DNA from: an uncultured delta proteobacterium
Lineage (GTDB): Bacteria; Desulfobacterota; Binatia; UBA9968
Reading direction: 5' to 3'
Assembly: GCA_963728565.1 (NCBI GenBank)
Contig: CAVSLC010000008.1
Span: 1-35,895 of the forward strand
Length of the DNA: 35,895 nucleotides
The notes below the pieces were generated by a model, which worked only from the letters and a program-made list of their open reading frames with translations, was not told the DNA's origin and did not search any database. Shown piece after piece: positions 7,830 to 18,153 of the stretch (its first letter is position 1; every line of letters begins with the position of its first letter). A program made the translations under genes and the position numbers.

Positions 7830-7905
7830 TGAGGAGTCGGCTAATTGGTAAGCCACCTGACTCTGGATCAGGCGATTGAAGGTTCGAGTCCTTCCTCCTC
7901 AGCCA
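7830..7905 (+). tRNA. tRNA-Gln (anticodon CTG)
   Basis: Acceptor TGAGGAG/CTCCTCA + G-CCA, anticodon arm CCTGA-CT-CTG-GA-TCAGG, T arm GAAGG-TTCGAGT-CCTTC. Confidence 0.96.
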
Positions 7906-7907
7906 AC

Positions 7908-7982
7908 GGTCCCATCGTCTAGCGGTTAGGACACCGGCCTCTCACGTCGGTAACACGGGTTCGATTCCCGTTGGGACCACCA
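7908..7982 (+). tRNA. tRNA-Glu (anticodon CTC)
   Basis: Acceptor GGTCCCA/TGGGACC + A-CCA, anticodon arm CCGGC-CT-CTC-AC-GTCGG, T arm ACGGG-TTCGATT-CCCGT. Confidence 0.96.
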
Positions 7983-9892: not shown

Positions 9893-11971
9893 TCAACGCG
9901 TCCTTGCGGGCGTCAAAAAGCGCCTCGGCTTCTCCGGAACAGGCCGGACGTCAGATAATATGTTCTTGAGCTCGGCAAAGTCTAACGGCTTGACAAGATG
10001 ATAATCAAACCCCGCGTCGAGTGAGCGGCGTCGGTCTTCTTCCTGGCCATAACCTGTGACGGCGATCAGGAGAATGTTTTTGCCCCCGGGTTGCTCACGG
10101 ATGCGCCGGGCCGTTTCATGACCGTTCATTTCAGGCAAGCCGATATCCATGAGTATTACATCGGGGCGAAATGTGCGCGCGAGTTCTATTCCTTCAATAC
10201 CGTCGCATGCTGTGGCCAGATCATGCCCCATCAAGCCTAAGGCTATCGCGGTGCTCTGAGCACTGAGCCGATTATCATCCACCACCAGAATGCGGTACTT
10301 AGGCAGCGGCGACGTTTTCTGTCGATCAGCTTCTTCTGCTTGGGATTTCGACAGAGGATCCGTCTTGGCTTGCGGCAGTCGCACTATCAGCTCGCTCCCG
10401 CGCCCGGGCCCACCACTGCGCGCTTCAATCGTTCCACCGTGCATTTCTACCAGGCCTCTGACCAGCGATAGCCCGATGCCCAATCCACCTTGCGACCTGT
10501 CGGAGGCGGTTTCCACCTGCGCAAAGAGCTGAAAGATGCGTGGCAGGTGATCGGCGGAAATCCCAATTCCCCGATCCGTGACACACACAATAACCTCATC
10601 TCCCACCGGCTCACCGGATAACGTGATGTGTCCGCCCCGGTCGCTGTATTTGGCGGCGTTGTTCAGCAGATTTGAGAACACCTGGGCCAACCGGGTTGGA
10701 TCGGCATCCAACAGAATCGGCTTGGGTGGCAGGCGGACACTCAGATGATGACCCTGCTCGTCAATCAGCGGGCGAGTCGTCTCTACCGCGCTCTGAACCA
10801 CCGCCGCCAATTCGACCCGCTCCTTACGAAGCTTTAGCTTACCTGTGGTGATCCGGCTGACATCGAGCAGATCATCCACCAGGCGGACCAGCTGATTTAA
10901 GGCTTGATCCATAATCGAGCGCGCATTCTCGGCTATGGTCCGGTCATTGCCGGCTAGATTGAGGATTTGCAGCCCGTTCCGGATCGGCACCAGCGGGTTA
11001 CGAAGCTCGTGCGCCAAGATCGCCAGGAAATGATCCTTTTTTTGGTCTGCTTCCTTCAGAGCCTTTTCCGCCCGGCGCCGTTGCGTCACATCGTGAAAAA
11101 CCATGACCGCGCCGGAGATTGTACCCGTAGCATCTCTGATCGGAGCAGCACTGTCTTCGATGCTTCTTTCGGTACCGTCTCTGCCGATCAAAGCGGTGTG
11201 GTTGGCCAGCCCGACAACTCTTCCGTCCCGCAAAACTATATCCACCGGATTCTTCGCCGGCTTGCGAGTGTCTTCACTGATGATGCTGAAAACTTTATCC
11301 AGAGGCTGGCCCGATGCCTCGGCGGTTTTCCATCCGGTCATCATTTCGGCCACCGGATTTAGAAACGTGACTTTGCCTTCGGTATCCGTGGTGATCACGG
11401 CATCACCGATGCTGGAGAGCGTGACCTCAAACCACTCGCGCTGTTGCCGCAACTCTTGTTCGGCTCTTTTCCGTTCAGTGATATCGCGGAAGCTCCAGAC
11501 CCGGCCCACATCACGTTCCTCGATGAACTGGATCCTTGAGAATCGCTCAAAAAGTCTTCCATCGGCCAGCTCCAGAAGATCAAACGTCTCCGGCGGCGAG
11601 AATGCATAGATTTCCTGGATCCTGGTAAGGAATTTCTCGGGTTCTTTGAGTTGCCGGCTAGTAATCTCAAGCAGCTGACGGTGATCCTTGGTCTCCATGA
11701 GCTCGGCGCTCACGCGCCACATTGCGCTGTAGTTCTGGTTAAACTCTGTGACCGCGCCGGTTGCGTTGGTCACCAGAATTCCATCGGTTGTAGACTCCAA
11801 CGTGGCGCGCATCATTGCCAGAGATTGCACGAGTTCCGCGGTCTTCCGCTCCAGCGCTTCCTTGGCGTCGATCAGTTCGCGTTCCGCGCGTTGTCGCGCG
11901 CGGTGGATGCTTCTGGCGTTCTTTAGCGCAACTGAGCGCAGCAGCTTCTCTTCGTTATCCTCTACGGCCAT
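9893..11971 (-). CDS. Soluble hybrid sensor histidine kinase (coiled coil-PAS-PAS-HisKA-HATPase-REC)
   Basis: PAS exits WSFRDITERKRAE and VFHDVTQRRRAE, H-box LAHELRNPL, N-box NLLNNAAKY, GLGIGL, REC ILVVDDN...MDIGLP...KP. ATG at 11971 overlaps the upstream TGA (TGATG), GGAG RBS. Confidence 0.93.
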   Translation of the reverse strand: MAVEDNEEKLLRSVALKNARSIHRARQRAERELIDAKEALERKTAELVQSLAMMRATLESTTDGILVTNATGAVTEFNQNYSAMWRVSAELMETKDHRQLLEITSRQLKEPEKFLTRIQEIYAFSPPETFDLLELADGRLFERFSRIQFIEERDVGRVWSFRDITERKRAEQELRQQREWFEVTLSSIGDAVITTDTEGKVTFLNPVAEMMTGWKTAEASGQPLDKVFSIISEDTRKPAKNPVDIVLRDGRVVGLANHTALIGRDGTERSIEDSAAPIRDATGTISGAVMVFHDVTQRRRAEKALKEADQKKDHFLAILAHELRNPLVPIRNGLQILNLAGNDRTIAENARSIMDQALNQLVRLVDDLLDVSRITTGKLKLRKERVELAAVVQSAVETTRPLIDEQGHHLSVRLPPKPILLDADPTRLAQVFSNLLNNAAKYSDRGGHITLSGEPVGDEVIVCVTDRGIGISADHLPRIFQLFAQVETASDRSQGGLGIGLSLVRGLVEMHGGTIEARSGGPGRGSELIVRLPQAKTDPLSKSQAEEADRQKTSPLPKYRILVVDDNRLSAQSTAIALGLMGHDLATACDGIEGIELARTFRPDVILMDIGLPEMNGHETARRIREQPGGKNILLIAVTGYGQEEDRRRSLDAGFDYHLVKPLDFAELKNILSDVRPVPEKPRRFLTPARTR

Positions 11972-13032
11972 CAACGCTCCAGTATCTTCGACGCGAGTGC
12001 CGTGCCGAGCACCCGCGCTCGGATCTTCGCAAAGGCCGTGTCACGGCTGGTGGATGTGTCGTCACTAAAGGGGGAAAAACCACAGTCATCGGTGGTGCCC
12101 AGCTGCTCGATTGGAATATACTGCGCTGCTTCAAGGATCCGGTCGCAAACCTCTTCCGGAGTCTCGATGCGCGGATCTATGGTCCCAATCACGCCGATAA
12201 AAATGCGCTGATCCGGTTTCATGTAATCGCGAATGATCTTCAAAACATGGACGCGGTCCTTCTCGCCCGCTAAGGCGATGTAAAAATTTCCCGCCTGCAG
12301 CTCGAACAGGCTGGGCAGCAGCTCGGCGTAGTCAACGTCGGCGCTGTGAGTCGAGTCGCAGTCCGCGCCAGGGCAGGTATGCACGCCGATGCGCTTACGG
12401 TCCTCTGCGGAGAATCGCGCCAGTGCCAGATTATTTAGATCGATAAAGCTTTGCAGGAGGTTGCCCGAAGGATCGATCTTGATCGCCAGCCGCCCTTCGG
12501 TGAAGTCTATCTGCACCTTGTGCGCGCCCCTTTCCAGGCAGCGGCGAATCTCGCTCTCATGCTCGCGCAGCAGATCACTGATAAACTCCTCTCGCGAATA
12601 ACCGGGGATTCCCTGGTCCGGATACATAAGGCTCAAGGCGGAGCACGAAATGACCGCCTGCTTCACCGGCACTCTTGCGTAACGAGTGGCGACGTCGAGA
12701 TATTGGTCGGCATACCTCTTGTAACGAAAGGGTCCCGATGTGAGTCGGTGCATCCGGCGGGTATGGCCGGTGGCGAAAGGGATCTTGAAGCCATCGGGTG
12801 CGATATTGGCAAGCCCCTGAACGGAGTACGTCCAGAAATTGTGATATTTTCTCTGCTCACCGTCGCTGATTACCGGCGAGCCTGTGGCCTCGAAGCGTTC
12901 GATGGTATCCCGAATTGCCGCTTCATAAAGCGCATCCAACTCCGGGTCTTCGTCGTTGCCTGATGCCGACACCGCCTCAATCAGTCCAAGTGGCCTTGGA
13001 ATACTGCCAATTGGCTCGGTTGGAATCGTCAT
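11971..13032 (-). CDS. Cobalamin-independent methionine synthase II family protein (MetE C-terminal catalytic domain only)
   Basis: Start moved to ATG 13032 (GGGAG RBS). IPTEPIGSIPRP, ISDGEQ, VQIDFTE, Zn motif GVHTCPG and DDCGFS; 353 aa, no N-terminal folate-binding barrel. Confidence 0.85.
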   Translation of the reverse strand: MTIPTEPIGSIPRPLGLIEAVSASGNDEDPELDALYEAAIRDTIERFEATGSPVISDGEQRKYHNFWTYSVQGLANIAPDGFKIPFATGHTRRMHRLTSGPFRYKRYADQYLDVATRYARVPVKQAVISCSALSLMYPDQGIPGYSREEFISDLLREHESEIRRCLERGAHKVQIDFTEGRLAIKIDPSGNLLQSFIDLNNLALARFSAEDRKRIGVHTCPGADCDSTHSADVDYAELLPSLFELQAGNFYIALAGEKDRVHVLKIIRDYMKPDQRIFIGVIGTIDPRIETPEEVCDRILEAAQYIPIEQLGTTDDCGFSPFSDDTSTSRDTAFAKIRARVLGTALASKILER

Positions 13033-13339
13033 GAATGTTACTCCCGTTTCGGTGTCGTCGATCGTGTCTGATATCAGACTAAGGGTTGCCGACGCGATCG
13101 GCATCATATCAACCGGCTTGACGCAATCAACTCTCAAATATCCGCTGACCAAAATGCCGCCACCGGAAACAAGTTACTTGGACTAAGATAAGGTGAGGCA
13201 AGTGCCGGTTTGGTTGTTCAGCATGACCAGAATACATTACGAGTTTACCAGGTACATTAAGGTCGCCGCCGAGGGTATAAAACTCTTAGCCTAACCTTTT
13301 TTGAATCCTTGTTCAGCCGGCGACCAGGACGAGCTCGTC

Positions 13340-17034
<3,695 letters not shown>

Positions 17035-17038
<4 letters not shown>

Positions 17039-18012
17039 TTCTTCGCCTTCCTTGGGGCTGATATCTTCTTTAAGCTTACGCGGGCGACGAAAATTTCGAC
17101 CGGCTGATTACCGTTACGAACCATCTTTTCACCGGCATACGAACCGGTGAGCTCATAATCGACCGCTTCCGCAGCACGAAACAAATCTTCAATGGTTTTG
17201 TGATCAAAGCCAAGCCACCGATGCGCCATCTCCCGGCGCATCCATTCTTGCTTATGTTGCACCAAATCGACCAGCACAATGGATCCACCTGGCCGCACGA
17301 TCCGGCAAAGCTCCGCAGTGGCTTTCTGTGGATCCGCCAGAAAGTGCAGCACCATGACGCAGAAGGCCGCATCCACGCTATGGGTCGGCATCGGCAGCCT
17401 CAACGCATCGCCAAGACGCAGGTCGACGTTCGCTAGTTTTTTTTCCTTGGCCAGTTCACCGGCGCGGCGTAACATCTCCTGCGAGAGATCGACACCGATG
17501 ACTTTTCTCGCAAATCGCGCCAGTTCAAACGTGAGACTGCCGGTGCCGCAGCCGACATCGGCCAACACCAGGTTTCGCGGCAGCAGCTTTTCAATGGCCA
17601 GGGAGGCGACCCGATCATCGAAATAGCTTTTACGAATTCTCTCCCAATCGCCGGCCACAGTTTCGAAATAATCGCGCGAGCGGTTCAACTTCCGGCGGCG
17701 GCAGTTTTCAAGCCGAGCGCGATCGCCTTTGGCTTCCGGCAGATCTTTAATCCGCTCGCGCAATGATTTGAACAGTTCCTGGGCCGGCGCCGGCATATCG
17801 CGGCGCGCTGAGAAATAAACGTTGGTGCCTTCCTTACGGTCCTGGATGAAACCCGCCTCGCGCAGAATCGCCAGATTGCGCGATACGGACGACTGCACTG
17901 AGCCGACGATTTCTTGCACTTCCCCGACGGTCAACTCTTCTTGAGAAACCGCGGCGAGAACGCGCAAGCGCAACGGATCACCCAATGCTTTGATAGTGCG
18001 GACAATATCCAT
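17035..18012 (-). CDS. ArsR-family HTH fused to a class I SAM-methyltransferase-like domain (SahR/SamR-type regulator of methionine/SAM cycle)
   Basis: Start moved to ATG 18012. [12 protein letters not shown]...[15 protein letters not shown] (ArsR), [21 protein letters not shown]; stop overlaps the metH start (ATGA). Confidence 0.88.
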
Positions 18013-18025
18013 ACCGGCAGCTCGG

Positions 18026-18047
18026 CTATATATCGCAATATATAGAT
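18026..18047. promoter_or_regulatory. Palindromic operator upstream of the ArsR-MTase/metH operon
   Basis: CTATATAT-cgca-ATATATAG (18026-18045), overlapping an ATC-N10-GAT (18032-18047), 13 nt before the ATG. Confidence 0.6.
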
Positions 18048-18153
18048 TATTAGATATTTGCGCAAGACGATGGGAATTCTTCAGCCCGCGCAATGCAGAG
18101 CCGATCCACCGCATAGGCGCTCGGTCGGGATTTGGAGAGCGTCAAAATATGGC

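Follow-up and report, generated by a model that had tools for sequence, protein, structure and literature searches.

The gene pair and its features

We analysed a stretch of 35,895 nucleotides (nt) from the genome of an uncultured delta proteobacterium (contig CAVSLC010000008.1; the whole stretch is hereafter called the window). On its minus strand it carries two directly adjoining genes, one for a protein that consists only of the catalytic domain of cobalamin-independent methionine synthase (MetE) and one for a soluble hybrid histidine kinase. Comparison with related loci revealed that the gene pair, its translational coupling and a sequence motif at the N-terminus of the kinase are conserved together. 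The following features, all on the minus strand, are referred to throughout:

11971..13032, minus strand: MetE-like gene, 353 amino acids, catalytic (beta-alpha)8 domain of cobalamin-independent methionine synthase only
11969..11973, minus strand: TGATG junction, in which the MetE-like stop and the kinase start share one base
9893..11971, minus strand: soluble hybrid histidine kinase, 692 amino acids from its ATG, with the Pfam domains given below
11873..11959, minus strand: putative docking motif at the kinase N-terminus, residues 5-33, consensus DEExLLRSVALQNAxSILLARQRAE
11456..11800, minus strand: PAS_7 domain, residues 58-172 (Pfam, 39.5 bits)
11087..11428, minus strand: PAS domain, residues 182-295 (Pfam, 75.4 bits)
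10367..11038, minus strand: kinase core, HisKA at residues 312-377 (46.3 bits) and HATPase_c at residues 424-535 (94.7 bits), Pfam
9956..10291, minus strand: C-terminal receiver domain, residues 561-672 (Pfam Response_reg, 80.9 bits)
12082..12381, minus strand: stretch with the presumed zinc ligands His218 and Cys220 (HTC), Glu257 (ALAGE) and Cys317 (DDCGF), invariant in 81 sequences
12418..12789, minus strand: predicted kinase-docking groove region, residues 82-205 (hairpin tip 82-84, residues 134-139 and helices 147-155, 183-187 and 191-205)

The MetE-like open reading frame (ORF) runs from the ATG at 13032 to the stop at 11973-11971. Its start was set at the MTIPTEP position, where all relatives begin; the open frame itself reaches a TTG at 13152. 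At the junction, which reads cgtTGATGgcc on the minus strand, the TGA and the ATG overlap by one base. HisKA, HATPase_c and the receiver of the kinase all score above their Pfam cut-offs, and no membrane segment was detected in this protein (the maximum Kyte-Doolittle mean over 19 residues is 1.04). The docking motif of the window kinase has no match in Pfam. A first-pass annotation, made from the letters alone, had described the pair as a 353-residue protein with only the C-terminal MetE domain, joined by TGATG to a PAS-PAS-HisKA-HATPase-receiver kinase without transmembrane segments, and the ORFs, the Pfam domains and the hydropathy profile all agree with that description.

Conservation of the pairing

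Relatives of the MetE-like protein populate more than 8,000 database clusters, the best 120 being 81-100% identical, and their carriers are mostly soil bacteria of at least ten phyla. From a one-genome-per-species scan, which returned 552 relatives, the best 80 were kept as a locus set (L007-L086). These are 77-85% identical to the window protein and belong to Acidobacteriota (40), Pseudomonadota (19), Planctomycetota (8), Verrucomicrobiota (5), Gemmatimonadota (2) and five further phyla with one locus each, one locus being without a phylum name. The carrier at L072, Singulisphaera sp. Ch08, is a cultured one.

At every one of the 80 loci the kinase N-terminal motif starts no more than 60 nt after the MetE-like stop, with a single match per locus and none elsewhere in the 870,590 bases searched in six frames. 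A downstream ORF on the same strand is present at all 79 loci with room for one (79 of the 80). The MetE-like stop overlaps this ORF by 1 nt in 41 of the 79 and by 4 nt in 23, and because these overlaps recur across 79 related loci they are not a product of chance. The downstream ORFs span 255-1,661 amino acids, and 76 of the 79 encode histidine kinases: 71 are of the HisKA type, called by their match to the HisKA/HATPase core of the window kinase, and the other five, called by Pfam, comprise two of the HWE_HK type (L017, L042) and three of the HisKA_3 type (L067, L071, L084). Of the three left, two are cut by the contig end and one (L038) is without a kinase core. A receiver domain occurs in 60 of the 79 ORFs. 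At two loci (L012, 7065-7306, and L017, 7065-7330) the motif sits in a short frame right after the MetE-like stop and the kinase body in another frame 240-264 nt later, a split that is due to a frameshift or to an error of long-read assembly.

A second set came from a metagenome scan seeded with a divergent member and added 79 loci, 52-81% identical to the window protein. Pairing was counted over the 53 of these whose 3' end is complete and which extend 110 nt or more beyond it, and was found in 51: the motif follows the stop with at least 20 bits at 47 loci and as a weak match at two, and at another two (L092, L101) a divergent but related helix leads into a PAS domain. No kinase was found in that position at the two exceptions, L104 and L145. 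The first-pass annotation had made its proposal hang on conservation of the pairing, and the neighbourhood analysis bears it out in both sets (80/80 genome loci and 51/53 metagenome loci).

We clustered 554 flanking proteins of the 80 genome loci, and no other neighbour recurred at more than four of them except two-component proteins, which flank the pair at 20. The module thus tends to sit in signalling neighbourhoods. Neither a corrinoid protein nor DUF1852 (MesX) recurred beside the MetE-like gene among these flanking clusters. At three loci (L007, 2-3052; L025, 7300-10083; L061, 9229-11793) extra PAS histidine kinases without the docking motif adjoin the pair. The first-pass annotation had also drawn attention to metH directly upstream of the pair in the window. 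An intact metH does lie there (17038..13340; 1675.6 bits against TIGR02082, above the cut-off), separated by 307 nt from the MetE-like ATG, but this adjacency is not conserved among the 80 loci and is incidental, since only two-component genes recur there at more than four.

A common N-terminal motif in the partner kinases

The common part of the partners is not their domain architecture but the first ~35 residues, MxxxxDEExLLRSVALQNAxSILLARQRAExEL, in which E7, L11, R12, S13, V14, A15, N18, A19, I22, A25, R26, R28, A29, E30 and L33 are at least 90% conserved. Beyond it the sequences diverge and continue into PAS_7, PAS or GAF domains or directly into the phospho-acceptor helix. Synonymous codons vary freely at the conserved residues of the motif, which is therefore selected at the protein level; the same variation rules out an explanation at the RNA level.

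Searches were made with a motif profile of 31 columns. In the 4.5-Mb assembly to which the window belongs, the window kinase is the only match better than E = 0.7, and five other carrier genomes (6.4-10.8 Mb) gave one match each, directly after the MetE-like gene. A search of 401 genomes from the phylum of the window returned the complete motif for the window's genome alone, and in seven others just the generic coiled-coil half matched (at most positions 19-59). A set of 1.84 billion representative proteins gave 676 matches at E ≤0.001 and 250 at E ≤1e-10. Within the best 150 of these 676, the motif starts in the first 16 residues of 134 proteins, and in the other 16 it is preceded by a MetE-like C-terminus, in frame or frameshifted. 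Fusions of enzyme and kinase, which the first-pass annotation had suggested looking for, exist and are rare. The clean case is P0121, in which the enzyme, a linker of ~10-12 residues, the motif, HisKA_3 and HATPase follow one another in a single frame; in-frame junctions are also present in P0148 and P0210.

A kinase core (HisKA, HisKA_3 or HWE) is present in 19 of the 27 representatives that begin with the motif and have at least 300 amino acids. The remaining eight carry PAS or GAF domains only and are probably truncated; none of the 27 has another output domain. Three minimal partners of 303-312 amino acids (L071, P0218 and P0283) are made of the motif and the kinase core alone, which in P0218 and P0283 (311-312 amino acids) is HisKA plus HATPase, and because such kinases have nothing else, they point to the MetE-like protein as the input. 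They also bear on the two forms in which an enzyme-as-sensor system had been put forward in the first-pass annotation. A complex of the two proteins is favoured by the dedicated, conserved pair, by the kinase-specific motif and by the predicted complex described below, but the variant in which the MetE-like protein would make a ligand for the PAS domains is disfavoured, since these three partner kinases have neither PAS nor GAF domains.

The MetE-like protein

In Pfam the protein matches only Meth_synt_2 (PF01717; residues 146-320, 32.2 bits against a cut-off of 21), with no match to the N-terminal MetE domain, and a search of the ESM Atlas gave Meth_synt_2 clusters only. Its AlphaFold2 model is a barrel with a mean predicted local distance difference test (pLDDT) score of 88.4 and a predicted template modelling score of 0.89. 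In Foldseek this model reached template modelling scores of 0.76 to 3rpd, a single-domain synthase, 0.72 to MetE of T. maritima (1t7l/3bq6) and 0.71 to 1ypx, of the YxjG/1ypx 'methionine synthase II' group, and only ~0.5 to uroporphyrinogen decarboxylases. It belongs to the superfamily of MetE catalytic domains.

The alignment of 81 sequences has a mean column identity of 85%. H218, C220, E257 and C317 are invariant, as are the segments IGSIPRP (G9-S10-P12-R13), DGE (57-59) and QIDFTE (174-179, with Q174-D176), and the HxC and CG motifs line up with their counterparts in 1ypx and 3rpd. The former four residues are presumably the zinc ligands and the latter segments the homocysteine-binding residues, as we assign them from these alignments and from earlier work on MetE. 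As these counterparts are invariant, the zinc and substrate site looks functional, judged by sequence. Both signature strings proposed for the subfamily in the first-pass annotation are present in the protein and are invariant or nearly so across the 81 orthologues.

Relatives are named 'cobalamin-independent methionine synthase II family protein' at NCBI. The scores against the NCBIfam methionine-synthase models all fall far below the cut-offs (55.1 against 406 for PRK04326, and 53.6 against 313, 49.0 against 576 and 44.7 against 392 for the others); the protein fails these curated models and is without their partner genes. The window's own genome encodes five more paralogues with the MetE domain only (L002-L006; 375-445 amino acids), 24-31% identical to the window protein. 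MetH was found in all five carrier genomes searched (four times above the cut-off, once as a split gene) and full-length MetE in one of the five. Upstream of the MetE-like gene, in the window and at eight loci, no riboswitch or other Rfam RNA was detected, the sole matches being two transfer RNAs (tRNAs). Since MetH is present in 5/5 carriers and there is no riboswitch at these loci, the MetE-like gene is probably not a plain methionine gene, and the carrier genomes seem not to need its product for methionine synthesis.

Predicted complex of the two proteins

The alignment of the MetE-like protein was modelled against that of the first 60 kinase residues (77 rows), together with three controls. 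The median score was 0.67 (0.67, 0.53 and 0.72 in the single runs) against 0.00 for the best control, so that the prediction passes its controls. With this procedure 58 of 80 solved complexes attained the pass mark, as did 2 of 110 mismatched pairs; here the mark is only a rough guide, as custom alignments were used. The runs had at least 98% of contacts in common, with a partner pLDDT of at least 80. In the model the kinase contributes residues 7-8, 10-19, 21-26 and 29, which form the nearly invariant core of the motif, and the MetE-like protein contributes residues 82-84, 134-135, 137-139, 147-148, 150-152, 155, 183, 186-187, 191-192, 195, 198-199, 202 and 205, which line a hydrophobic groove on the barrel exterior, away from the zinc site. 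Structure prediction of the pair had been among the checks named by the first-pass annotation, and it places the predicted interface on the motif.

Four groove positions are conserved in the coupled clade (F82 in 99-100%, L155 in 99%, L192 in 100% and L202 in 96%) and replaced in relatives without a kinase. In sequences outside the alignment used for the complex model, position 202 of these kinase-less relatives is occupied by Q, E or K in three plasmid relatives, by R in L145 and by Q in L143, and position 82 by I, A, L, A or M, with V as a further replacement of F82; members with a variant motif have L or M at position 202. An exposed hydrophobic patch that is present only where a kinase follows fits a docking surface such as the one modelled. 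A second stretch, loop 62-69 (KYHNFWTY; window positions 12826-12849), right after DGE, is likewise invariant in the coupled clade and replaced in kinase-less relatives. At its position 67 a small residue goes with a lost or divergent motif: four of five cases with A or G lack the canonical motif, against none of 47 with a bulky residue. The loop was considered as a docking site and rejected, as the complex model leaves it outside the interface; it may set ligand specificity.

One could also suppose, from the position of the groove, that the MetE-like protein senses nothing. It would then regulate the kinase constitutively or serve as a scaffold, whether as an activator or as an anti-kinase like KipI or Sda, and would bind the helix with an enzyme site that is vestigial or has another, unconnected task. 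A predicted groove away from the zinc site would suit such a role, and sensing could fall to the PAS or GAF domains that most of the kinases possess. Against it, the zinc and substrate motifs are invariant in 81 sequences with 85% mean column identity, which indicates a site in use, and minimal kinases without any other sensory domain exist; we hold this explanation to be improbable. Far less probable still is that the kinase N-terminus is a substrate, the motif being alkylated or otherwise modified by the MetE-like enzyme in analogy to the methylation of chemotaxis receptors. This would explain close docking on an enzyme with intact catalytic residues, but MetE-family chemistry requires a zinc-bound thiolate acceptor, no cysteine occurs in the first 40 alignment columns of 78 motif sequences, and the predicted interface does not reach the zinc ligands at 218, 220, 257 and 317.

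Where the coupling ends, and evolution of the pair

Most relatives in the identity range of 38-63% occur singly, with no kinase beside them. The neighbour is a 2-oxoacid oxidoreductase gene on plasmid pGLOV01 of Trichlorobacter lovleyi and a gene of the carboxymuconolactone decarboxylase family on a plasmid of Streptomyces globisporus. The relative is also alone at L145 and in four genomes of a single class, from which 400 were sampled and six found to carry the family (a count that includes the unpublished genome G444, used for the count only).

Such solitary relatives bear on the simplest alternative, an operon of convenience, in which the MetE-like protein would be a plain methionine synthase or thiol alkyltransferase, and the kinase would control it or be co-expressed with it, without contact between the two. 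Every catalytic-type residue is invariant, as expected of an enzyme, and the relatives in T. lovleyi, Streptomyces and the four sampled genomes have no kinase partner; a backup synthase could moreover be useful, because four of the five carrier genomes lack full-length MetE and depend on MetH. The alternative nevertheless leaves unexplained why a once-per-genome motif, conserved at the protein level, persists while the kinase body behind it is swapped among three families, and it accounts neither for the hydrophobic patch of the coupled clade, nor for the score of the complex against its controls, nor for the absence of a methionine-type riboswitch at the loci searched. We regard it as unlikely.

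A different association was found on Pseudoalteromonas megaplasmids (L089, 5001-7083; L177, 1986-4086), where a MetE-like gene with 50.6% identity is followed within ~20-30 nt by a gene for a PAS-GGDEF diguanylate cyclase. The protein encoded by the latter has an acidic, helical N-terminus of its own, with no match to the kinase motif, and the fold may here have become coupled to a signalling protein independently, for a second time. The kinase clade thus seems to mark at least one recruitment of the fold to signalling proteins, with the Pseudoalteromonas pair as a possible further one.

The tree of MetE-like proteins clusters by phylum, with 20 label changes against a minimum of nine. The window protein is sister to a protein from Syntrophobacteraceae (90 in the Shimodaira-Hasegawa-like approximate likelihood ratio test), whose kinase partner has the same architecture and is 71% identical to the window kinase over 675 residues. 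Kinase types track the enzyme tree, with a HisKA_3 clade (L067, L071, L084) and an HWE clade (L017, L042); the pair is therefore both inherited and transferred as a unit, and the kinase body was remodelled behind the motif. We read the two genes as a self-contained, horizontally mobile signalling module. The nearest genomes are too distant for synteny to show an insertion in the window (metH 59-60% identical, and no match in a genome of the same family).

A putative co-sensor docked on the kinase

We propose that the MetE-like protein serves the kinase as a dedicated co-sensor in the cytoplasm, docked on its N-terminal helix, a reading to which we give a probability of roughly two in three. 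According to the model, the external hydrophobic groove formed by helices 147-155, 183-187 and 191-205 and the hairpin tip 82-84 would receive the kinase's first ~30 residues, which consist of an acidic cap and then an amphipathic helix. The MetE-like protein would act as a detachable input domain of the kinase. Its site for zinc and an amino-acid thiol could bind homocysteine, a related thiol or an alkyl donor; homocysteine or another amino-acid thiol is the simplest guess for the ligand. Occupancy of this site, or the chemistry in it, would then be passed to the bound helix, which is conceivable because the groove helices directly follow the strands bearing the substrate motifs SPSAL and QIDFTE. 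A changed hold on the N-terminal helices might shift the coiled-coil register that leads into the PAS domains or the phospho-acceptor helix and so switch autophosphorylation. Docking would be expected to alter the pairing of helices in the kinase dimer, since the buried face of the motif (L11, V14, A15, N18, I22, A25 and A29) is also the face of a parallel coiled coil. Given the translational coupling, we expect a 2:2 stoichiometry with one co-sensor per kinase chain. A more specific version, which we put forward only tentatively and think rather less probable than not, sees in the MetE-like protein a catalytic receptor that takes up homocysteine, another thiol or a methyl donor at its zinc site, perhaps turning it over, and reports the state of sulfur and one-carbon metabolism to a histidine kinase through a portable docking helix of 30 residues, in the Pseudoalteromonas branch maybe to a diguanylate cyclase instead.

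Several observations weigh against the co-sensor. An identity of ~80% across phyla with all catalytic residues kept is the pattern of a working enzyme, and the primary role of the MetE-like protein may be enzymatic. Nor is it the sole possible input, given the additional PAS or GAF domains in most partner kinases. One motif-bearing partner (L038, 7062-8591), complete with 509 amino acids and PAS-PAS-GAF architecture, is without a kinase core, the sole such case of 79, and at L104 (4001-5940) a MetE-like gene of the coupled type (74% identical, with F82 and L202 kept) is followed by a hydrophobic ORF of membrane type; the kinase of this locus may lie elsewhere or have been lost. Clean fusions are scarce, with one full-length example among 28 longer matches and mostly frameshifted read-through in the rest. 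The complex score expresses the confidence of the model only, obtained with custom alignments and a rough calibration, and could echo intramolecular packing learned from full-length MetE. Among the interface residues, clade-specific positions are only slightly overrepresented (5 of 24, compared with 34 of 353; P = 0.068), and the most striking clade-specific stretch, loop 62-69, lies outside it.

Relation to known systems and significance

Stand-alone cytoplasmic ligand-binding proteins beside a kinase are also found in systems of the H-NOX/HnoK and NosP/NahK types, where the ligand-binding protein is described as controlling the kinase by direct contact (PMC10746521, PMC13654575). These are haem sensors, whereas the protein described here has a zinc (beta-alpha)8 enzyme fold and its kinases possess a common N-terminal docking motif. 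The core of the window kinase resembles the NCBIfam model 'near_NosP_CTERM', with 146 bits, below the cut-off of 400. Conservation of the sensor gene beside the kinase gene, a mark of such modules, is seen here at 80/80 and 51/53 loci. A second parallel is HoxBC-HoxJ of Ralstonia eutropha, in which a homologue of an enzyme acts as the cytoplasmic sensor of a soluble PAS histidine kinase (PMC6978683). That system is built on a NiFe hydrogenase and belongs to hydrogen oxidisers, in contrast to the zinc MetE domain, at least ten phyla and three kinase families seen here. The same review treats trigger enzymes and transporter co-sensors (DctA/DcuB-DcuS, BceAB-BceS), which resemble the proposed system in that a metabolic protein also serves as the signal input of a two-component kinase (PMC6978683); the co-sensors differ from it, for they are membrane transporters acting on membrane kinases, whereas here both components are fully soluble and the genes translationally coupled.

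With MesA-MesD, core-MetE and the YxjG/1ypx group, the MetE-like protein has in common a single MetE catalytic domain of ~350 amino acids, the zinc motifs HxC...E...C and the homocysteine motif IGSxPR. In place of the corrinoid protein or MesX with which MesA-MesD work, the partner here is a kinase, and the scores of our protein against the NCBIfam models are far below the cut-offs. The word 'kinase' occurs zero times in the main text of the study of core methionine synthases by Price et al. 2021 (PMC7857596). We found no description of the pairing of a MetE-like protein with a kinase, or of the motif strings, in a literature search over openly searchable main texts. The pairing joins the theme of stand-alone sensor and kinase represented by H-NOX, NosP and HoxBC, from which it is set apart in four respects: the fold of the sensor, the dedicated N-terminal helix for the predicted docking, its occurrence in many phyla and the involvement of three kinase families.

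For most soluble PAS kinases no signal is known, and a widespread group of them now has a candidate input protein, a motif and a predicted interface; it comprises 676 representative clusters of motif proteins, and the clusters of their MetE-like partner number more than 8,000. Should the co-sensor reading hold, a fold known only for thiol alkylation would join the bacterial sensor modules. If the protein is moreover a catalytic receptor, as in the more specific version, it would be the first dedicated two-component input for sulfur and one-carbon metabolism, and groove and helix would form a new plug and socket, transferable in evolution and attached to kinases of three families. The system may reveal how bacteria that rely on MetH, and hence on B12, monitor homocysteine or the supply of methyl groups, and the helix-groove pair could serve as a compact handle for rewiring kinases. 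There is also an annotation to be corrected, as thousands of entries name the MetE-like protein 5-methyltetrahydropteroyltriglutamate--homocysteine methyltransferase.

Surroundings of the pair in the window and traces in soil

The pair lies in housekeeping surroundings (fabF, glnS, gltX, a desaturase gene, gpmI, nadD, proAB and obg). An ORF at 17035-18114 (minus strand) encodes an ArsR-type helix-turn-helix domain fused to an S-adenosylmethionine-dependent methyltransferase domain, and its stop overlaps the start of metH by 4 nt. This points to a fusion of regulator and enzyme that shares a transcript with metH. The two adjacent tRNA genes lie downstream of gltX, at 7830-7979 (Rfam, 64 and 65 bits). 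A scan for promoters and terminators performed no better than on shuffled sequences. One soil RNA library contains a 238-nt contig from inside the kinase gene and a 150-nt contig from inside the MetE-like gene, a weak hint of expression given that carry-over of DNA is possible. The organism of the window is present in soil metagenomes of several studies.

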